Origin: a virus
Taxonomy: Duplodnaviria > Heunggongvirae > Uroviricota > Caudoviricetes
Reading direction: 5' to 3' (one strand)
Length of the DNA stretch: 25,956 nt
IMG/VR virus record: IMGVR_UViG_2711768059_000012
Span: 1 to 25,956 of that record
Part shown: in pieces, positions 1 through 13,568 of the stretch
How the letters are laid out: each line of letters starts with the position of its first letter
How positions within the stretch are numbered: the first letter of the stretch is position 1
Translations under genes and position numbers: made by a program
The notes under the pieces: generated by a model
The model's database searches: none
The model's input: only the letters and a program-made list of their open reading frames with translations
What the model was told of the DNA's origin: nothing

Positions 1-1032
1 TCAAACAGTTGCTGTTGATGTTGGTAGTGTAGCCAGCGGATTAAACCGTAATGCAGTTTCCAGGTGATCCGGTGCCAGATGTGCGTAACGCATGGTCATT
101 TTTATGTCGTGATGTCCGAGGATTTTTTGCAAAGCAAGGATATTTCCACCCGACATCATGAAATGCGCCGCAAACGTATGGCGCAGAACGTGTGTCAGTT
201 GACCGCGAGGGAGTACGATGGACGTTTTTTCCATCACGGATAAAAATTGAAAATAGCAGTCTGTGAAGAAATTGAACCCATCAAGCGCCATGATCTCTTC
301 GTAAAGGTCTTTACTGATAGGGATGCTTCTGTTTTTCTTCCCCTTCGTTCTTACAAAGGTAATTCGGTATTTGGTCACCTGTGAGCGGGTAAGATTTACG
401 GCTTCACGCCAACGTGCGCCTGTGCTTAAGCATATCTTAACTACCAGTGCCAGAATTGGGTCCTGACGTTTGCAATCAGCCAGCAATTCAACAATCTGCT
501 CATGGGTAAGCCATGCCATCTCTTTTTCTGCGATGGTGAATTTTCGCATGTTCTCCAGTGGGTTCGGATACGACCATTCGCCCAGGCGGGATAGTTCGCT
601 AAAAACACTACTTAGATAGCTTTGCTCCAGGTTAATGGTGACCGGGCTTGCTCCTTTCTTCCATTTCTCGCTGAAGTAGATCTCACCTGTCAGGCGTTTA
701 TCTCGATAGTGGGCAAACATTTTAGATGTGAGATCAGTTGCAAGGGGATTGCCCAGAGCGTCAACCATCAACAGCAGTTTGTCATAGACATGCTGGCCAG
801 CTGTCAGAGATTTACCATGTAGTTTGAACCATAGTTCAACCACGTCTTTCAGTGTTCGACGATCCACTGATTCGCCCAGCCAGGGCTTTGCTTCGGTTTC
901 TTCCATCGTGTGACGCTCAAAAGCCAGAGCTTCGCCTTTGGTGGCGAATTGTTTACGCACACGACGTCCGCTACGTCCGGCGGGGTAACATTCGCAAAGC
1001 CATTTTCCTGTGGTGAGTTTTCGTACTGCCAT
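1..1032 (-). CDS. int: Tyrosine integrase (P2/186-type site-specific recombinase)
   Basis: 343-aa ORF with tyrosine-recombinase catalytic signature in order (R in STGARWREA, HVLRHTFA box, RYAHL with catalytic Tyr). Stop codon is at the window edge (pos 1-3). Position next to the repressor is typical of P2-like prophages. Confidence 0.9.
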   Translation of the reverse strand: MAVRKLTTGKWLCECYPAGRSGRRVRKQFATKGEALAFERHTMEETEAKPWLGESVDRRTLKDVVELWFKLHGKSLTAGQHVYDKLLLMVDALGNPLATDLTSKMFAHYRDKRLTGEIYFSEKWKKGASPVTINLEQSYLSSVFSELSRLGEWSYPNPLENMRKFTIAEKEMAWLTHEQIVELLADCKRQDPILALVVKICLSTGARWREAVNLTRSQVTKYRITFVRTKGKKNRSIPISKDLYEEIMALDGFNFFTDCYFQFLSVMEKTSIVLPRGQLTHVLRHTFAAHFMMSGGNILALQKILGHHDIKMTMRYAHLAPDHLETALRFNPLATLPTSTATV

Positions 1033-1104: not shown

Positions 1105-2874
1105 TCATACGTCAGGGGTAATCCAGTCGACTAAAGCCTCAATACTTTCGAAATCTGCACAGATATCTGAAAGAGGTTGTGTATCTGCTTTTGTTTTGAA
1201 ATCAGCCCATACTGATTCATTTTTTTCTGTAAGACCCAAATGGTTTTCTATCGAACCATTTAGCCAAATCCAAATATTTGCATTTCTCAGTTTTGCGGCT
1301 AATGATGACAAAAATTCTCTGGCGCCGGGCTTTTGAGACATAATAGCAAATGCTTCAGCTGCGGTAGTGTTACTACCCCTTGTAGGCAAACCGGATCCAT
1401 CGAGAGTGCATTCTCCATTAGCATGCATACTTCTCAAGATTTCTTTTAGTCGTAAAATATCCTCGTCATTATGTTCTAAGAAGTTGTTCCTTATTGCACC
1501 GCGGAACGCAAAATCTAAATCAACAATTGCTTTTGTAGGTATATCCATTGAATTTAGAATTTGCATCGTTTTAGATATACTTTCAACGGACCCTGTTTCA
1601 ATTAGTGCTATTTGCATCTGACCTAATGTTTTATTTTTAACTTTGTTAAAAATAAATGGGAGCAGAGTAGTCTCTGTTTTACCTTCTGTTAGTATTACAT
1701 TGTTAGCAAACAAAACTTTTGAAGACTGTGTTAATGAAAATAAATGGGTTGCTTGTGCTGGTCGTTGTTCGATTACTTTATTGACTGCTTCTTTTAATGT
1801 TAATCTGCAATGAGTGCCACGCTGACTGTTTTTTCTGATTAACACAGTGTCTTTTGCTAAGTCAGAGGTAATCATTTGAGATGAATGGGTAGAGAAAATT
1901 ATTTGATATCCATGATGAGATAGTGTTTTTAGAGATTCTCTAATTTGTTCGATAGCAAATGGGTGAAGATATAACTCAGGTTCATCTATTAACAGTAGAG
2001 TAGTTGTTTTAATATCATCACCGTTGGTTATATCAGCTAAATGTCTTATTAGAGCCATCTGAATCGAACGCTGTGTGCCATGACCATAAGAAGAACAGTC
2101 ACGAGCAATGCCGGGAAATGAATCTTCATATACTTTTACAGTCCCTGATTTAAATATATCCTTGAAGTCAGGGAGTTCGAAGTGTAGTTTTAAACTTATC
2201 CCAGGGAAGAAATCAGCAACTTTACTACTTATTGAATCATCAATATCATTGAGGTCCGATATTCGTTTATTACCGGTTGCAGTCATTCTTCTATTAACGG
2301 CATTTAAATGGCTTAGTATCATTTGAGTGTGCTTCTCTTCTATTTTGCAACTCAATTCTGCCAGCAACTTACCTATTGTAGTTCCTGTTTTTGATTTTGA
2401 AGAATCATCCGCTGCATTTTCCATTGCACCTATACGTATTGGGTCTGGAAATAAAGCTTTTATCGCATTCTCAATACCCGTTGGTGATGTTCTGAATTCG
2501 TTATTTTCTGGGTTTTTAATTAATAATCTGACGTCTTTTGCACTTTGAGCACCAACAGGCTGTTGACGCTTAAATATCAATGCCTCATCAATAATGTAGG
2601 GTGAAATTCTAGTTCTGTTTTCTTCTGTTAAAGCTGACAAAATATCTTCAGTAATACCCTTAACTGTGCCTATAACTTCTATAGGGTTATCTGGATTAGT
2701 ATAATCATCAGAGGACAAAAGTTTTTTCTTAAAAAGCCATTCAATAGCATTTAAAATCGTTGACTTACCAGCATTGTTGTAACCGATTAAAGGCGTGAAT
2801 GAAGAAAAATTGATATCAATATCTTTGCAAGATCTAAAGTTTTTTATAGAAATCTTTGAAAGATGATGATTCAT
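1105..2874 (-). CDS. OLD-family ATP-dependent endonuclease (N-terminal ABC/AAA ATPase + C-terminal Toprim), P2 Old-like
   Basis: 589-aa ORF. N-terminus IKNFRSCKD...GYNNAGKST (Walker A), LLLIDEPELYLHP (Walker B/D-loop region), C-terminal VILTEGKTE and AIVDLDF resembling Toprim Glu and DxD. Strong RBS (GGAGGAG, 6 nt before ATG). Visibly AT-rich compared with flanking phage genes. Confidence 0.7.
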   Translation of the reverse strand: MNHHLSKISIKNFRSCKDIDINFSSFTPLIGYNNAGKSTILNAIEWLFKKKLLSSDDYTNPDNPIEVIGTVKGITEDILSALTEENRTRISPYIIDEALIFKRQQPVGAQSAKDVRLLIKNPENNEFRTSPTGIENAIKALFPDPIRIGAMENAADDSSKSKTGTTIGKLLAELSCKIEEKHTQMILSHLNAVNRRMTATGNKRISDLNDIDDSISSKVADFFPGISLKLHFELPDFKDIFKSGTVKVYEDSFPGIARDCSSYGHGTQRSIQMALIRHLADITNGDDIKTTTLLLIDEPELYLHPFAIEQIRESLKTLSHHGYQIIFSTHSSQMITSDLAKDTVLIRKNSQRGTHCRLTLKEAVNKVIEQRPAQATHLFSLTQSSKVLFANNVILTEGKTETTLLPFIFNKVKNKTLGQMQIALIETGSVESISKTMQILNSMDIPTKAIVDLDFAFRGAIRNNFLEHNDEDILRLKEILRSMHANGECTLDGSGLPTRGSNTTAAEAFAIMSQKPGAREFLSSLAAKLRNANIWIWLNGSIENHLGLTEKNESVWADFKTKADTQPLSDICADFESIEALVDWITPDV

Positions 2875-2917: not shown

Positions 2918-3856
2918 TTATTGTATTGTTAAGATAATGCTGGCTATAATTTGAATATCTTCAATGGAACACTCAAAATCCTTACTCCCACCAGAAACAA
3001 GAATTTTGTTCTTAGGTAAACGAGTTAACTCTTTTAAAGATAACTCATTGTCAATTCCTACTAACCATTTTCCATCTCTAATTAGGTGAAATTCTTTATC
3101 ACATATGACATGTTTTTCTCCATTGCTTACAAACATCAAGCTGCTAGTTTCTTGCTTCGGAAGTAGACACCGATCCATGGATAAAAAACCTGACTCGACA
3201 AGCACGCCATTGACCAAATTGAACTTATTTAAAATTACAGTGTTTTCTTCTTGTGAACTATTTGGTGTTTCGATTCCTGTAACTAGCCAGGCGAGATCCG
3301 CTTTGGTTTCTAATGCGCATTTAATCACCCAATCCGCAGGGAAAGAATCTCGCATGTATCGTGTGGCTAATGTGCTTTTTGAAATACCAAGGTGGTCGGC
3401 TAAGGCTTGGCGGGTTTTAAACCCGTAAGCATTAACAATCCTCTCTATCGCGGCTTTTCCTCCGTTAGTAAGCTCAATATGATTCTCAATGCGGCGCTTA
3501 AAGGATGATTGATGAGCGTTGCTGTTAAACCCCTCATGTGGGACTGTTTCATCATGTTGTTCCACATAAGGGGGGAAACTTTCTTCTGCATTGTTAGAAC
3601 CAAAGGCCAGCCATTCTAGGGATGCGCCAGTTTCCATTGAACATATAACAACCCAATCAGCAGGGAAGGTATCGCGTGCATATCTATTAGCCATTGTGCT
3701 TTGTGAAATACCAAGATGCTTACAGAAGGCTTGGCGTGATTTGAAACCATAGGCCTTGAGTATCCTCTCAATGACTTTTTGCCCTCCACGATTCTGCATG
3801 ACCATAGCTTTCAGACTATCTTCAATATGGCGAAATGTGATTTTTTGAGTTGACAT
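2918..3856 (-). CDS. cI: CI-type immunity repressor (186 CI family) with tandemly duplicated N-terminal HTH domain
   Basis: 312-aa ORF divergent from the apl/cII operon. Two ~58-aa copies of IERI(L/V)(K/N)AYGFK(S/T)RQA...HLGIS(Q/K)ST(M/L)A(N/T)RY(A/M)RD(T/S)FPADWV..., at residues ~29-86 and ~137-194, then a C-terminal domain. The duplication is also visible at the DNA level. Confidence 0.8.
   Translation of the reverse strand: MSTQKITFRHIEDSLKAMVMQNRGGQKVIERILKAYGFKSRQAFCKHLGISQSTMANRYARDTFPADWVVICSMETGASLEWLAFGSNNAEESFPPYVEQHDETVPHEGFNSNAHQSSFKRRIENHIELTNGGKAAIERIVNAYGFKTRQALADHLGISKSTLATRYMRDSFPADWVIKCALETKADLAWLVTGIETPNSSQEENTVILNKFNLVNGVLVESGFLSMDRCLLPKQETSSLMFVSNGEKHVICDKEFHLIRDGKWLVGIDNELSLKELTRLPKNKILVSGGSKDFECSIEDIQIIASIILTIQ
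3275..3772 (-). repeat. Intragenic tandem duplication (two ~174-bp copies, 3599-3772 and 3275-3448) encoding the two HTH modules of the repressor
   Basis: Protein-level repeat seen directly. Shared DNA strings such as gaaataccaag and aaggcttggcg occur in both copies. Confidence 0.7.
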
Positions 3857-5748: not shown

Positions 5749-6599
5749 GCACCATCCTGAAATGGGCAGGAAATAAAACCGCCATAATGTCCGAACTGAA
5801 AAAGTATCTTCCTGCTGGCCCGCGACTGGTTGAACCTTTCGCGGGTTCCTGTGCAGTGATGATGGAGACGGATTATCCCAGCTATCTTGTTGCGGATATT
5901 AATCCTGATTTAATCAACCTCTATAAAAAGGTTGCTGCTGATTGTGAGGCGTTTATATCTCGTGCCAGAGCTTTATTTGAGGAAGCAAACAGGGAGGTGG
6001 CTTATTACAACATAAGGCAGGAGTTTAATTACTCCACTGAAATTACTGATTTCATGAAAGCGGTATATTTCCTGTATCTCAATCGTCACGGTTACCGTGG
6101 TTTATGTCGCTATAACAAGAGCGGGCATTTCAACATTCCCTACGGTAATTATAAAAATCCGTATTTCCCTGAAAAAGAAATTCGCGCATTTGCAGAGAAA
6201 GCCCAGCGGGCAACGTTTATCTGCGCCAGCTTTGATGAAACGCTGGCGATGTTGAAGGTGGGGGATGTGGTGTATTGCGATCCGCCTTATGACGGTACGT
6301 TTTCCGGCTATCACACTGATGGTTTCACTGAAGATGATCAGTATCACCTGGCATCCATTCTTGAACATCGGTCATCAGAAGGACATCCGGTCATTGTTTC
6401 TAACAGTAACACGTCTTTGACCCGGTCCCTTTATCGTAATTTCACTCACCACTACATCAGGGCGAAACGCAGCATCGGCGTTGCAGCGGGGGAGGGAAAA
6501 TTTGCAACAGAGATGATTGCCACTAAATCTGCTAATTGGTTTAGTGCCGATTTTAGTAGGGGACGTGACTCTACTGTTATTTTCGGGGTGCAAGTGTGA
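5745..6599 (+). CDS. dam: DNA adenine methyltransferase (Dam-like, GATC-type N6-adenine MTase)
   Basis: Starts [23 protein letters not shown], has FAGSCAVM (SAM-binding) and CDPPYDGTF (DPPY catalytic motif). GGAGG RBS. ATGA overlap with the upstream gene. Confidence 0.85.
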
Positions 6600-7426
6600 A
6601 AGAAATGCACCACGGAATTCATCATTTCCATGGGACGCCTGTCTGGGGAAGTGCTGGCGACGTTCATCGTATTGCGGTGAGCGGAGCTGGCGCTTTCGTC
6701 TCCTATGTACGACCAGATCAGATTGCGGCGTCCATTCAGCACGCTCAGGTCGTCGGCATTGATAACGGCGCATTTTCTGCATGGGTGCGTGGGCTAAAAA
6801 TTAACTGGAGTGATTTTTATAAATGGCTCCTGAACTATTACCACCATCCTAAGGTCGCTTTTTTTGTCATTCCTGATGTTGTGGACGGAGGTGAACGTGA
6901 CAATGATGCCCTGATAAACGAAGTTCCGAAAATGTTCTACGGGAAGGCAACTCCCGTCTGGCATCTGCACGAGTCAATCGATCGGCTTATCGAGCTATGT
7001 CGTGAATGGCCTCGTGTCTGCTTTGGATCGTCTGGTGAATATGCGGCTATCAGAACTGCGCACTGGCATCGTCGTATGCAGGACGCTTTTGAAGCAATTT
7101 ATTGCCGACACAATTTCAAAACAGCTGTTCATGGTTTGCGCATGCTTGACGGTCGTGTGTTGGGAAATTACCCACTGGCGACTGCCGACAGTACAAATCT
7201 TGCCTGCAATGTCCCCAAATTTAATAGCAAATATCCTGAGCTGACGCGGGCTATTCAGGAGGCTGAGTATTCGCGCAATCTGACGGAAAAGGAGCTGAAA
7301 GCTGTCATTCTGAAAAACCGTTGCGCAATTTTAAAAGGTGCAATTGAAGCTGTTCGCCCACCTTCAGTTTCTGATTGGCTGTCGAATGGTTTGCAGCCTT
7401 CACAGCTCGAACTGGAGATTGCGTAA
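6596..7426 (+). CDS. Hypothetical protein, possibly a minimal TGT/DpdA-like (7-deazaguanine) transglycosylase (speculative)
   Basis: 276-aa ORF (GTG 6596 overlapping the dam stop, or ATG 6605). Motifs in the same order as in tRNA-guanine transglycosylases as I recall them: GTPVWGSAG (cf. TPAFMPVGT), [11 protein letters not shown] (cf. ILTDSGGFQV), FFVIPD (cf. MAFDE), FGSSGE (cf. GGLAVGE). No Zn-binding Cys cluster. The assignment rests on remembered motifs only. Confidence 0.55.
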
Positions 7427-9798: not shown

Positions 9799-9890
9799 TT
9801 ACGCGGGTTAACAATTCGTGCTCTTAATAATACCAGGCATATCAGGCTGATGAACGTAAAAAAACGTTTTACATCAGTAAGATTATTATA

Positions 9891-9910
9891 TACTGTAAAT
9901 ATAAACAGTG
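9891..9910. promoter_or_regulatory. LexA box (SOS operator) upstream of the small-ORF/dinI-like pair
   Basis: TACTGTAAATATAAACAGTG fits CTGT-N8-ACAG with an AT-rich spacer, about 45 bp upstream of the ORF starting at 9952 and overlapping AT-rich promoter-like sequence. Confidence 0.65.
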
Positions 9911-9951
9911 GTTATGCATACAGTATTGCTTGTGGTGTCATAGGAGGAAAG

Positions 9952-10140
9952 ATGCAGGACTATTTTTTGGAGTCTTTGAAGCTCCAGCGCATTGATTTTT
10001 TTCTTAAACTTGTAGCGGCTAGTGAGTGTAGTGATGAAGAGAAGGGGCTGGCTTTGCAGTGGGTTTCTGAACTGACAGATGAACTCATGGCAAAAATCAG
10101 AACTCACGAATACAACCGCTCAATGGATGTCATCAGCTGA
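9952..10140 (+). CDS. Small hypothetical protein; possible N-terminal part of a Tum-like SOS antirepressor
   Basis: 62-aa ORF with AGGAGG RBS 4 nt upstream, immediately downstream of the LexA box. Overlaps the upstream extension of the dinI-like reading frame. Confidence 0.45.
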   Translation: MQDYFLESLKLQRIDFFLKLVAASECSDEEKGLALQWVSELTDELMAKIRTHEYNRSMDVIS

Positions 10141-10150
10141 GGTGACTTTT

Positions 10151-10384
10151 ATGCGCATTGAAATAATGATCGATAAAGAGCAGAAGATTAGCCAGTCTAC
10201 CCTAGATGCCCTTGAATCCGAGCTTTACCGCAATCTGCGCCCCCTGTATCCCAAAACGGTAATTCGTATCCGCAAAGGTAGCTCTAACGGTGTGGAACTG
10301 ACCGGACTGCAACTGGACGAAGAAAGAAAACAAGTGCTGAAAATTATGCAGAAGGTGTGGGAAGACGACTGCTGGCTGCATTGA
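10151..10384 (+). CDS. dinI: DinI-family protein (DNA-damage-inducible protein I-like)
   Basis: 77-aa product MRIEIMIDKEQKISQSTLDALESELYRNLRPLYP...VWEDDCWLH resembles E. coli DinI (MRIEVTIAKT..., acidic C-terminus). GAGGTG RBS 6 nt upstream. Downstream of the LexA box. Confidence 0.75.
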   Translation: MRIEIMIDKEQKISQSTLDALESELYRNLRPLYPKTVIRIRKGSSNGVELTGLQLDEERKQVLKIMQKVWEDDCWLH

Positions 10385-10520
10385 TAGGTTTCGTTTGTAA
10401 TGAGTCATGTTTTTTGAGTCCGATAGTAGACAGCTAGAGGGATAAATGATTAATAGATAGATTAAACATAGTGATGGGCGTAAAATCGCGCGCATTTTAT
10501 TGGCAACGGATCTGAACTCA

Positions 10521-11414
10521 ATGGCGGATAAGACTCAATCAGTAAGTATTGTGTATCAAGGCAAAGCTCTCGACGATCATAAGATGGATATTCTTTCGTT
10601 TGCGAAAAGTTTGCAGGGGCTAGGTGAGGCTATCTACTCTGCAAATGAGATTGTAAACGGAGGGCGAGACATTGAAGTTAACGTTGACGCTGAATTGATA
10701 GCCGGTTCCTTTGGGTTTGATATTGAGGTTGTACAACATCTAGCTAATGCTAAAGATGTTGTACAAATTTTAGGTTTGTCAGCCATTCCTTTAGCCGTTG
10801 GCGGTGCTACAGTTTTAGAGGTTCTCAAGAAGCTTAACGGGCGTAAGATCGACATAGTCGAGAAAGCTAACGGTAGTGACAAAGTTAAGCTGAAAGTCGA
10901 TGGTGAAGAGATTGTTTGCTCTGAAGATGTCGAAAAAATCGTTAATGCCCCAGAGATTCGTAAGGCTGTTGACGCGTTTGTCAGACAGCCTCTGTTACAA
11001 GATGGTATCGACAATTTTGTGGTAAAAAAATCGCGCACCTCTAAGAAAGAAATCCTCAAAATTCATAAAGATGAGGCAGAAGAGTTTAAGTCGCCAAAAG
11101 TTCTCTTTGAAACCAAAGAAGAAGTTGACGAATTTGAAACAACCGTGACATTCGTTTCGGCGCATACTGACAAAAAAAGTGGCTGGCGTGTTGAGTTTGG
11201 CGGTGAAAAGCGCAATGTCAGAATGGAAGATAATGAGTTCATCAAGCTTGTTACTGGACCAGACGCCCCCAAAATTTTTGGCGAATTGTTTGCTGTGAAG
11301 ATGAAGAAAATTGTGAAAGATTCCGGTGGCCAGGTAGACGAAAAGTTATCGATCATCAAAGTGGGTCGACACTTTGCCGCCAAAGATAGAAAAATAAAAC
11401 CTGATGCGGATTAA
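10521..11414 (+). CDS. Hypothetical soluble protein, first gene of a three-gene accessory module
   Basis: 298-aa (ATG 10521; TTG 10500 also possible), Lys/Glu-rich, no recognised catalytic motif. Sits in a visibly AT-rich stretch. Stop is 2 nt before the next start. Confidence 0.6.
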   Translation: MADKTQSVSIVYQGKALDDHKMDILSFAKSLQGLGEAIYSANEIVNGGRDIEVNVDAELIAGSFGFDIEVVQHLANAKDVVQILGLSAIPLAVGGATVLEVLKKLNGRKIDIVEKANGSDKVKLKVDGEEIVCSEDVEKIVNAPEIRKAVDAFVRQPLLQDGIDNFVVKKSRTSKKEILKIHKDEAEEFKSPKVLFETKEEVDEFETTVTFVSAHTDKKSGWRVEFGGEKRNVRMEDNEFIKLVTGPDAPKIFGELFAVKMKKIVKDSGGQVDEKLSIIKVGRHFAAKDRKIKPDAD

Positions 11415-11416
11415 AA

Positions 11417-11680
11417 ATGTCTATAGATATTAGTGTGTTAGGATGGTTGGGGCTGCTTGTTGCAGCTCCAGCTATATTTATAGGTGCTAGAGTGGCTATA
11501 CGTAGCCTGCTCGATCGAGTTATTGTCGAAACAAAAGTTTCTATCACTTATACTGATGCAAACAAAAATGTCTATAAAACAAATATTTATATAAACAATG
11601 ATGATGAGTTAATAAAGCTCATCGATGATATAGCAGAGAAAAATAAGCGTGAGAGGAAGGAGTCAGCCTCTCATGCCTGA
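11417..11680 (+). CDS. Small membrane protein (one N-terminal TM helix), second gene of the module
   Basis: 87-aa. Hydrophobic VLGWLGLLVAAPAIFIGARVAI then a charged C-terminal tail. Coupled to both neighbours. Confidence 0.55.
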   Translation: MSIDISVLGWLGLLVAAPAIFIGARVAIRSLLDRVIVETKVSITYTDANKNVYKTNIYINNDDELIKLIDDIAEKNKRERKESASHA

Positions 11681-12089
11681 ACAAAAGAAAACAAGCGGTA
11701 AAGCAGTCGGTGTTACAGGTGGCGGCGGTGTAGGCCTTTTCCTAATAAAGCTGGCTAGCTTCATTACAGATCCAACATGGAAAGACCTTTACATTGCTTC
11801 AATACCGATGGTGTCAATTCTTTTAAGCGAAGTTTTTACTTTTGCATGGACGATTTATGCTGTTGATCCGCAAGAAATCAAACTGAAAAGGCGGTTGAAG
11901 GCTCTGAAGAAGCAAGCCGAAGCAGTTTTAAATGCACCATCGTCCCCTGTTTCTCCAGAAATGCGAGAGAAAGCGCAGGCTCGTTACGACGTGATCTGTG
12001 GAATTGAAATGGGAATTTACCCCCTCTCAATTGTAAATACGCTAGATGGAAAAGTATCCCCCACAGCGCAAACGCCGGACGTTAAATAG
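11673..12089 (+). CDS. Small membrane protein (two predicted TM helices, Gly-zipper), third gene of the module
   Basis: 138-aa from ATG 11673 (GAGGAAGGAG upstream; 8-nt overlap with previous gene). GVTGGGGVGLFLIKLASFI and IASIPMVSILLSEVFTFAWTIYAV hydrophobic segments, then a basic coiled region. Confidence 0.55.
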   Translation: MPEQKKTSGKAVGVTGGGGVGLFLIKLASFITDPTWKDLYIASIPMVSILLSEVFTFAWTIYAVDPQEIKLKRRLKALKKQAEAVLNAPSSPVSPEMREKAQARYDVICGIEMGIYPLSIVNTLDGKVSPTAQTPDVK

Positions 12090-12326: not shown

Positions 12327-13568
12327 ATGCAAAGAATAGTTTTTTACTCTTGGCAATCTGATTTAAATGGAAAATGTAATAGAAATTTAATTCAAGATGC
12401 TTTGGTTAGATCTCTAAAAGCAATAAAAAAGGATGAAACAGAAACATTGGAGCCAGTCTTGGATCGTGATACTAATGGTTTAAATGGCTCACCATCAATT
12501 AGCGAAAGCATTTTTAATAAAATATCACTTTCAGATGTTTTTGTTGCCGATGTTTCTATCATAAATGGAAGGTCTGAGGATAAGAAGACACCTAATCCAA
12601 ATGTTTTGATTGAATTAGGATATGCAGTATCCCAGCTAGGCTGGGATAGAGTAATCATGGTCCAGAATACATTTTATGGTTCTCCAGAAGAACTTCCTTT
12701 TGACTTAAGAGGACGGAGGGTAATTGCATATACTATGGACCCTGATAGTGATTCAAAACCTGAGGTAAGAAGCTTACTGCAAGGGCGACTTGAAACTGCA
12801 TTAAGGGAGTCCTTGAGTGATTCAAGCCAAGGAGCTATTTCTTCAGGTTTAAATGCACCAATATGGTGGGGGGAGTGGTACAAGGACAATCGCAGAAGTA
12901 ATTTTGGCAAATTATTTATTCGTGAAACATCGTCAAATGGTTTTCTTTTTGATTTAGTAGTTATGAATGGATCACATTCTGGGAGTATTACAGGAGAGGC
13001 GGTTTTTGTAGCTAGAGATTCAGCTTACGCTAGAATAAAAATACCTGGAAGTAATGAATTTGGCGAGTTGAGTTTTAGGCGCAGCATATTTGATGGTAAA
13101 CGATATATTAGGATAAGTGAGACCGTTAGTTGTCAATACTGGCGAGGTATGGGGGCCTTTTTTGATGGTGAGTTTCGTTGTGCAGAGGATCATTTGTTTT
13201 TATTTGGTTTTGCAAATGAAATGGAACTTCAGAGATTATACAACGTTATGGGGCAATATTACTTTGAACTGAAAAAAGTGATGGAGCAAATAGGTGAGCG
13301 CGATAATCTTGATACTTTTGTCGCAAAGGCTTATCAGGGAGGAGTTAGAGGACTTTATACCATTGCGGAAGGTATGGTGATGTTTGGTAGAGAGGGCGAG
13401 ATATGGGCTATTTATCTCAATGATGGTGAAATTCGTTATTTCACAAATGTACATAAATGGAAAAAAACTATTCCAAAAACTTTTGAACAGTGGCGAGAAC
13501 GATTTCCAGAGATTGAAATAAATTATGGAGGTGATATCTCGACACTTCCTACACAAGAAGATTTATAG
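12327..13568 (+). CDS. Two-domain protein: N-terminal TIR-like/nucleoside 2-deoxyribosyltransferase-like domain plus uncharacterised C-terminal domain; candidate anti-phage effector
   Basis: 413-aa. GAGGAG RBS 7 nt upstream. N-terminus RIVFYSWQSD (cf. TIR beta-A FISYSxxD) and NPNVLIELGYA (Glu96 in an E-[LI]-G-Y-A context as in the NDT/TIR-like superfamily). Very AT-rich. Followed by a hairpin terminator. Confidence 0.65.
   Translation: MQRIVFYSWQSDLNGKCNRNLIQDALVRSLKAIKKDETETLEPVLDRDTNGLNGSPSISESIFNKISLSDVFVADVSIINGRSEDKKTPNPNVLIELGYAVSQLGWDRVIMVQNTFYGSPEELPFDLRGRRVIAYTMDPDSDSKPEVRSLLQGRLETALRESLSDSSQGAISSGLNAPIWWGEWYKDNRRSNFGKLFIRETSSNGFLFDLVVMNGSHSGSITGEAVFVARDSAYARIKIPGSNEFGELSFRRSIFDGKRYIRISETVSCQYWRGMGAFFDGEFRCAEDHLFLFGFANEMELQRLYNVMGQYYFELKKVMEQIGERDNLDTFVAKAYQGGVRGLYTIAEGMVMFGREGEIWAIYLNDGEIRYFTNVHKWKKTIPKTFEQWRERFPEIEINYGGDISTLPTQEDL

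Follow-up and report, generated by a model that had tools for sequence, protein, structure and literature searches.

The window, by which we mean the whole stretch of 25,956 nucleotides of viral DNA analysed here, is a P2/186-like (Peduoviridae) prophage, and its features are collected in Table 1. The region of interest lies directly after the gpA-type replicase gene and consists of a LexA operator, a gene of 62 codons which we call tum, and a gene for a DinI-like protein; the location is syntenic with that of the corresponding module in 186, PSP3, Fels-2 and DuoHS. Between 9700 and 10385 the DNA shares 96.6% identity with Salmonella phage Fels-2; the value for many Klebsiella P2-like prophages is about 98%, and in both cases the homology ends at the dinI stop codon (10385). 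In E. coli 13E0767 the match, at 99.6% identity, extends over the full query and takes in the first part of the cargo genes that follow. The features listed in a first-pass annotation of this DNA are all present, with slight adjustments to their coordinates.

Table 1. Features of the prophage window discussed in the text, in order of position.
Feature	Position	Strand	Basis or remark
Integrase	1-1032	-	
Old-family ATPase-nuclease	1105-2874	-	
186-type CI immunity repressor, presumed target of Tum	2918-3856	-	two Phage_CI_repr HTH and Phage_CI_C
apl-like ORF, CII (CP76 family), Dam methylase, then gpA-type replicase	gpA ends 9798		
-35-like hexamer TTTACA of p95-like promoter	9868-9873	+	sequence reading; assigned by analogy with 186
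-10-like hexamer TACTGT	9891-9896	+	first six bases of LexA box
LexA operator (SOS box) TACTGTAAATATAAACAGTG	9891-9910	+	motif scan and conservation
tum Shine-Dalgarno AGGAGG	9942-9947	+	sequence reading
tum (tumA-like), 62 codons, predicted antirepressor	9952-10140	+	homology to N-terminal half of 186 Tum
Small hairpin GTCATC-AGCTGA-GGTGAC, then TTTTAT	10129-10146	+	weak; covers tum stop and dinI Shine-Dalgarno
dinI Shine-Dalgarno GAGGTGA	10139-10145	+	sequence reading; overlaps tum TGA stop
dinI-like (tumB-like) gene, 77 codons	10151-10384	+	Pfam DinI match
Intergenic stretch, dinI to cargo (136 nt)	10385-10520	+	no terminator- or promoter-like site detected
PDC-S42/LAPAL-family gene	10521-11414		PADLOC PDC-S42 7.8e-44; NCBIfam LAPAL_fam 191.7 bits
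Two small partner ORFs	after 10521-11414 gene		
TIR-like gene, CAP12/Pycsar-type TIR domain	12327-13568		after a gap
Portal and terminase genes	right of variable cargo	-	

A near-consensus LexA operator had been proposed to precede the two genes, and this is confirmed. The box agrees with the consensus TACTGTATATATATACAGTA at 17 of 20 positions, and when up to three mismatches to this consensus are allowed it is the only such 20-mer in the window, with none in 100 shuffles. It is also the single CTGT-N8-ACAG site in the window, but this loose core is unremarkable by itself, 0.36 sites being expected by chance and at least one being present in 32 of the 100 shuffles. The sequence of the box is the same in the window, Fels-2, DuoHS and 813R9. 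The CTGT and ACAG cores are kept, with a variable spacer between them, in SopEPhi, Klebsiella phi4.1, Yersinia MLG42 and PSP3, and the 186 box TACTGTATGTTTATACAGTA likewise keeps the cores and has a different spacer.

The annotated p95 promoter of 186 consists of TTCACA, 18 nt and TACTGT, with the LexA site running from the -10. The window has the same architecture, except that 17 nt separate TTTACA from TACTGT, and by analogy these two hexamers probably form a p95-like promoter. It does not appear in the output of the consensus promoter scan, because its -10 agrees with the consensus at only 3 of 6 positions.

The start codon of tum agrees with the annotations of Fels-2, DuoHS and E. coli 13E0767, and the stop codon of the gene is TGA (10138-10140). 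A longer version of the ORF, of 96 aa from 9850, was rejected as an overcall: the corresponding N-terminal extensions of homologues are an unconserved translation of the promoter and LexA box. Compared with relatives at which synonymous sites are nearly saturated, dN/dS is 0.04-0.09, and the gene is under strong purifying selection.

The first-pass annotation had likened the 62-aa protein to the N-terminal part of the antirepressor Tum of phage 186, a likeness that is upheld by reciprocal matches to PHROG profiles, by a family HMM and by hhalign. Direct BLASTP of the protein against 186 Tum or PSP3 TumA gave no match, and for this reason the homology was established through profiles and intermediate sequences. 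The protein matches phrog_698 (E 3.6e-38), phrog_8554 (2.4e-8) and phrog_1993 (2e-3); for the first 60 residues of 186 Tum the same three profiles are found in the opposite order, namely phrog_1993 (1.4e-22), phrog_8554 (1.4e-11) and phrog_698 (2.7e-5, in the register 7-44 that it shares with the 62-aa protein). An HMM was built from the 62-aa protein and 42 diverse relatives, with 2000 shuffles as decoys. It matches residues 6-43 of 186 Tum with 33 bits, where the best of the 2000 shuffles reaches 9.2. The family alignment compared with 186 Tum by hhalign gives a probability of 94.6% and an E value of 7e-8, pairing residues 5-46 with 5-46. The family and 186 Tum have in common a motif that is roughly E-x3-LQRI-x-L-x2-RLV-x4-C-x3-DK-x-LA-x2-W-[IV]-x-EL. 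This profile evidence establishes homology between the 62-aa protein and the antirepressor half of 186 Tum, at its N-terminus. PSP3 TumA is itself a member of phrog_1993, but the family HMM gives it 3.4 bits, which is not above the shuffles, so that it is linked to the family only by way of phrog_1993 and 186 Tum.

The AlphaFold model of the 62-aa protein is a two-helix hairpin (helices 2-23 and 28-61, pLDDT 87.8), with the nearly invariant Cys in the predicted turn. A Foldseek search of this model against the PDB returned only generic helical hairpins, none with E ≤0.001.

The second gene had been described as DinI-like and as corresponding to the C-terminal part of Tum, and this assignment holds. 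Its product matches Pfam DinI (PF06183) with 75.4 bits against a cut-off of 24.2 (E 4.3e-21), residues 14-76 covering positions 1-63 of the 63 in the profile. The score against the NCBIfam equivalog for chromosomal DinI is 41.4, below the threshold of 111, which marks the protein as a phage paralogue and not as host DinI. Its identity is 40% with residues 71-145 of 186 Tum and 75% with PSP3 TumB, and by these alignments the gene is the counterpart of the C-terminal half of 186 Tum. With dN/dS at 0.06-0.13 against relatives whose synonymous sites are nearly saturated, it too is under strong purifying selection. A 101-aa version of the ORF, starting at 10079, was rejected as an overcall.

The stop codon of tum is followed after 10 nt by the ATG of dinI, which is in the +1 frame relative to tum. 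The first-pass annotation had noted that the DinI frame reaches back to an ATG at 10079, sharing 60 nt with the 62-aa ORF. The extension is real, with 25 open codons ahead of the dinI ATG, as far as 10076, but the overlap, in the +1 frame, amounts to 62 nt. Three explanations of this layout had been offered, namely a genuine two-gene arrangement, a programmed frameshift and an inactivating mutation. The evidence given below bears out the first of these, through the separate Shine-Dalgarno sequences, the variable frames and the purifying selection, and contradicts the other two.

The junction was compared in the window and seven relatives. The window, Fels-2, DuoHS and 813R9 have a gap of 10 nt, frame +1 and 25 open codons upstream of dinI; SopEPhi and Klebsiella ST437-OXA245phi4.1 have a gap of 11 nt, frame +2 and 14 open codons; Yersinia vB_YpM_MLG42 has a gap of 12 nt, frame 0 and four open codons; and PSP3 has a gap of 3 nt, frame 0 and a single open codon. 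The stop codon of the first gene is kept in every relative compared, and a purine-rich stretch resembling a Shine-Dalgarno sequence precedes the dinI ATG at every junction except that of PSP3, where none is evident. Since the frame relation is +1, +2 or 0 among these relatives, one recoding event could not be conserved among them. That the DinI frame reaches back into the 62-aa ORF is, judged from this comparison, a fortuitous property of the Fels-2 lineage.

These observations bear directly on the suggestion of a programmed ribosomal frameshift, which would take place within 10079-10137 and produce a counterpart of 186 Tum, a Tum-DinI fusion of about 140 aa. The open DinI frame over the end of the 62-aa ORF would permit it, and the fused form is real in 186. 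However, the shift required is the rare +1 and not the common -1, no X-XXY-YYZ heptamer is seen in 10079-10140, the dinI-like gene has a Shine-Dalgarno sequence and ATG of its own, and both the frame relation and the length of the open upstream stretch vary among close relatives. The locus therefore does not look like a programmed frameshift site. The question whether homologous loci are fused has a divided answer: the gene is fused in 186, but among the listed homologues of the 62-aa protein none of 120 continues into DinI sequence. The longer entries among them are N-terminal overcalls in which the promoter and LexA box have been translated. A profile search of 1.84 billion representative proteins, in which the library-wide E-value cut-off puts a fused 186-type Tum below reach, gave 87 matches, none with the size and N-terminal placement of a Tum-DinI fusion. 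Most of these are of 50-100 aa, and the remainder are fragments, N-terminal overcalls and one false positive. The false positive, P0163, is a protein of 1205 aa with a P-loop NTPase motif and tandem 37-residue repeats (AIDALVKLIADSNVDD...), taken as HEAT-like. We consider a frameshifted fusion to be extremely improbable.

The other suggestion was that an ancestral fused tum had been broken by a frameshift or stop, leaving a prophage that can no longer be induced. It starts from the observation that the 186 gene is fused and that the two halves in the window are in different frames. Against it, the split is kept in Fels-2, SopEPhi and PSP3 as well as in Klebsiella, Yersinia and E. coli prophages, and both halves have retained ribosome-binding sites and are under strong purifying selection. 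The most direct argument comes from DuoHS, a near-identical prophage of E. coli HS that is inducible by mitomycin C. Deletion of its tum gene (ECHS_RS04495), whose product is identical to the 62-aa protein of the window at 61 of 62 residues, abolishes this induction, which also needs a cleavable LexA (PMC12055606). Phage 186 too makes the DinI-like half separately: its annotation includes Tum95.5, which has an internal GTG start, is essentially the DinI-like half and 'modulates SOS induction'. TumA-like genes also occur with no dinI at all, following gene A in Escherichia phage ESSI2_ev040, Cronobacter phage ESSI-2 and Yersinia phage vB_YenM_06.16-2. An inactivated tum is thus hardly credible.

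The two-gene arrangement is hence preferred. In the strict sense 186 Tum is a single polypeptide of 146 aa, and the window does not encode one, as the stop codon at 10138-10140 ends the first product and dinI is in the +1 frame. By sequence comparison the tum/dinI pair is a natural two-gene layout, a split variant of 186 tum, and the N-terminal module of Tum is an autonomous unit that is found alone, beside dinI or fused to dinI. Because it occurs fused, split in three frame relations or without DinI, the DinI part is accessory.

The junction between the two genes contains a small hairpin that sequesters the dinI Shine-Dalgarno sequence and has the tum stop codon in its loop. The 39 nt of the junction fold with -9.4 kcal/mol, at a z score of about -1.7. 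A hairpin with other arms is present in Klebsiella phi4.1, and none is present in SopEPhi or MLG42. It might possibly be a translational-coupling or attenuating element; being weak and missing in some relatives, it is not claimed here to be functional.

It is concluded, with a probability of roughly 0.9, that the region is the naturally split, LexA-controlled SOS operon of a P2-like prophage of the Fels-2/186 type. The overlap of LexA box and promoter, the location, the homology to the N-terminal part of Tum and the DinI moiety are all as in the Tum operons of 186, PSP3 and Fels-2. The initial proposal of a Tum-like SOS induction module under LexA control is in this way substantiated by the LexA box, by the homologies to Tum and DinI, and by the presence of a 186-type CI. 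The anatomy, homologies, conservation and selection are read from the sequence, and the LexA dependence and the requirement for the 62-aa gene are taken from the literature on near-identical or related phages.

The operon would be expected to work as follows. In a lysogen, host LexA bound at 9891-9910 would keep it silent, because the operator overlaps the -10 of the p95-like promoter. DNA damage would lead to activation of RecA, self-cleavage of LexA and firing of the promoter. The first product, the two-helix Tum of 62 aa, would then bind the 186-type CI and so free the lytic promoter, and the prophage would be induced with no cleavage of CI. The 77-aa protein of the DinI family would be made separately, its ribosome-binding site being a distinct one that overlaps the stop codon of tum. 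DinI modulates the activity of RecA filaments, and by analogy the DinI-like protein would bind these filaments and thereby adjust SOS signalling, a role that the 186 annotation gives to the DinI-like products started within tum.

Binding of the window Tum to the window CI is likewise proposed by analogy. DuoHS CI has 189 aa and a single HTH, whereas the window CI has 312 aa and a double HTH. The two are 55% identical overall and about 78% identical in the second HTH (counted from the alignment), and it is because of this limited identity, together with the HTH duplication, that the compatibility of Tum and CI is argued rather than taken over from DuoHS. Klebsiella phages 4LV2017 and Kp4860-7 have a similar double-HTH CI together with a Tum that is 100% identical, which makes it plausible that the window Tum acts on the window CI.

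The effective inducer might instead be the DinI-like protein, for example acting via RecA, in which case the 62-aa ORF would be an accessory gene or a leader peptide. The deletion in DuoHS lies in the upstream gene, and its effect could be polar, through the junction hairpin and the overlapping stop codon and Shine-Dalgarno sequence; if the genes are translationally coupled, the deletion could be partly polar on dinI. In addition, the activity of PSP3 TumA is a second-hand claim, relayed in a passage of PMC3121763 as a personal communication from E. Christie. On the other side, a 186-type CI has no RecA-dependent cleavage route, and the 186 antirepressor Tum inhibits DNA binding by CI (PMC7708051; also the 186 annotation). 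Moreover, the 62-aa family is conserved and under purifying selection, and in several Peduoviridae gene A is followed by a TumA-like gene although dinI is missing. We regard induction by the DinI-like protein as quite unlikely, if somewhat less so than either a frameshifted fusion or a broken tum, and retain Tum as the probable antirepressor.

The split tum/dinI SOS operon is an already described (Fels-2, PSP3), functional and very common variant, and 1125 of the 5426 complete E. coli genomes searched contain the module. Since the split has been described, and since a near-identical E. coli prophage has already been studied with its 62-aa gene deleted, finding it here has little value as a discovery. 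The operon is nevertheless poorly served by annotation. Neither Pfam nor NCBIfam has a model for the 62-aa antirepressor family, and all of the E. coli entries listed annotate the pair as 'hypothetical protein' and 'DinI-like family protein'; some records label the antirepressor 'levan regulatory protein'. The TumA-like gene of Yersinia phage vB_YenM_06.16-2 is annotated as 'tum protein'. With an antirepressor that has no Pfam or NCBIfam model and is labelled hypothetical, the inducibility of these very common prophages is invisible to routine annotation.

The only part with residual novelty is the possible SOS control of the cargo downstream of dinI. The first-pass annotation saw no convincing terminator after dinI, and we agree: the scan for terminators gave no candidate on the + strand from the dinI stop codon to the next genes, and RNA folding of 10375-10530 is not better than that of shuffles (z = -1.13). 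The cargo occupies the gpA-gpQ hotspot of P2-like phages (Rousset et al., PMC9122126). In 186 the same position is held by orf97, a gene that, according to the annotation, belongs to the SOS operon, follows a partial terminator and on expression prevents infection by 186. This partial terminator, annotated as t95a after tum, has no counterpart in the window. Orf97 and STM2726 of Fels-2, both of 243 aa and in the same position, have no detectable similarity to each other, and the orf97 position therefore holds unrelated cargo.

Because no terminator is found and orf97 provides a precedent, it is a reasonable idea that the cargo responds to SOS. We put forward tentatively, while on balance doubting it, the idea that transcription from the LexA-controlled tum promoter continues into the defence cargo, which consists of the PDC-S42/LAPAL-family gene, the two small ORFs and perhaps also the TIR-like gene. 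If this were true, the gpA-gpQ defence hotspot of Fels-2-type prophages would be at least partly an SOS-induced compartment, generalising the case of 186 orf97. The P2-type defence hotspot is widely studied, and here it begins right behind a LexA-controlled operon with no detected terminator. In the papers on this hotspot that were searched, PMC9122126 among them, no mention of Tum, LexA or SOS was found.

Several known systems resemble the operon to different degrees. The dinI-gfoA/gftA loci of the Salmonella prophages Gifsy-1 and Gifsy-2 pair a LexA-controlled DinI homologue with a small antirepressor that inactivates the repressor without cleavage (PMC3121763). Their gene order is reversed, with dinI first, and their antirepressors and repressors are of lambdoid type. 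Coliphage 186 has its module in the same place after gene A, with the LexA box over the -10; the antirepressor and DinI-like regions are found in the same order as in the window, from which 186 differs in that they are fused.

The split form has been described in Fels-2 and PSP3, in both of which tum is divided by a stop codon, and the upstream gene of PSP3 is stated to have antirepressor activity (Lemire et al., PMC3121763). A passage in the same paper credits the split tum of Fels-2 to Bunny, Liu and Roth 2002. A literature search for TumA or TumB as whole words returned only unrelated papers. The PSP3 annotation describes tumA as 'similar to 5' end 186 tum; UV induction of prophage' and tumB as 'similar to dinI and 3' end of 186 tum'. 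Like the window, PSP3 has a LexA box, a TumA of about 60 aa and a DinI-like TumB of 77 aa; unlike the window, its TumA belongs to phrog_1993 and not phrog_698, and its genes are in the same frame, separated by TAG and one codon.

DuoHS has ECHS_RS04495 (tum, 189 nt, annotated 'hypothetical protein') upstream of the DinI-like ECHS_RS04500, after a replication endonuclease gene, and its downstream cargo differs from that of the window. In Fels-2 the same two genes are STM2728 (hypothetical) and STM2726.1 ('DinI family protein, similar to TumB of PSP3'), whose products are identical to those of the window at 61 of 62 and 75 of 77 residues. The LexA box, the 10-nt gap and the +1 frame are also alike, and the cargo after dinI is different.

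The tum antirepressor gene of the window is followed by a separate dinI-like gene, but three other Peduoviridae (Escherichia phage ESSI2_ev040, Cronobacter phage ESSI-2 and Yersinia phage vB_YenM_06.16-2) carry a TumA-like gene after gene A and have no dinI-like gene. The antirepressor module is also found on its own, without dinI. In ESSI-2 the TumA-like ORF is wholly unannotated. Coordinates of these genes and of the features discussed below are listed in the table.

Features of the window and TumA-like genes of three relatives (numbered within their locus sequences L010, L011 and L012)
Feature	Coordinates	Strand	Remarks
P2 Old-family ATPase/TOPRIM exclusion protein	1105-2874	-	full-length; PADLOC Old, 8.7e-234
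CI immunity repressor	2918-3856	-	312 aa; two tandem Phage_CI_repr HTH domains, then one Phage_CI_C domain
276-aa ORF	6596-7426	+	between Dam methylase and gene A
Hairpin over tum stop codon and dinI Shine-Dalgarno, then TTTTAT	10129-10146	+	flagged terminator-like by scan
First cargo gene and two small ORFs	10521-12089	+	first gene of PDC-S42/LAPAL family
Small ORF after the first cargo gene	11417-11680	+	no family match
Second small ORF after the first cargo gene	about 11673-12089	+	no family match
TIR-domain protein	12327-13568	+	413 aa; N-terminal CAP12/Pycsar-type TIR domain, C-terminal part uncharacterised
TumA-like gene, ESSI2_ev040	L010 653-913
TumA-like gene, ESSI-2	L011 701-868
TumA-like gene, vB_YenM_06.16-2	L012 677-859

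No Pfam or NCBIfam model exists for the antirepressor (9952-10140), which has experimental support. Its homologues in public databases go under the name 'hypothetical protein'; some entries instead read 'levan regulatory (domain) protein', a label that looks like a propagated misannotation. Many of their gene calls start too far upstream, so that the LexA box is translated. The Tum-family profile search also returned a protein of 1205 aa (P0163), matched in 10 stretches. Its sequence contains GEPGAGKT, a P-loop NTPase motif, together with repeats of 37 residues in tandem (AIDALVKLIADSNVDD...), which we take to be HEAT-like. It was judged a repeat-driven false positive and rejected as a relative.

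A hairpin is also present at the tum-dinI junction of the Klebsiella phage phi4.1, although with arm sequences different from those in the window. The junctions of SopEPhi and Yersinia MLG42 have none.

Two family models recognise the first cargo gene 3' of dinI: in PADLOC it falls into the candidate defence family PDC-S42 (7.8e-44), and in NCBIfam it scores 191.7 bits with 'LAPAL motif-containing putative phage structural protein'. One family thus goes by two conflicting names. E. coli 13E0767 has this gene and the two small ORFs as well. The TIR gene (Pfam 6.7e-6; PADLOC TIR effector 1.8e-9), a second cargo gene, lies before the portal gene, and its place in 13E0767 is taken by a DUF262 protein.

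The 276-aa ORF gave no match in Pfam or PADLOC, and is absent from 13E0767 and the E. coli HS prophage DuoHS, where the methylase abuts gene A. The CI of DuoHS has one HTH domain and 189 aa, whereas that of the window has two. Klebsiella phages 4LV2017 and Kp4860-7 have a similar double-HTH CI (about 294 aa, 59% identity to that of the window); their Tum is 100% identical to that of the window. The Old-family gene of the window is located between the integrase and cI, whereas old of P2 itself is in the gpA-gpQ hotspot.
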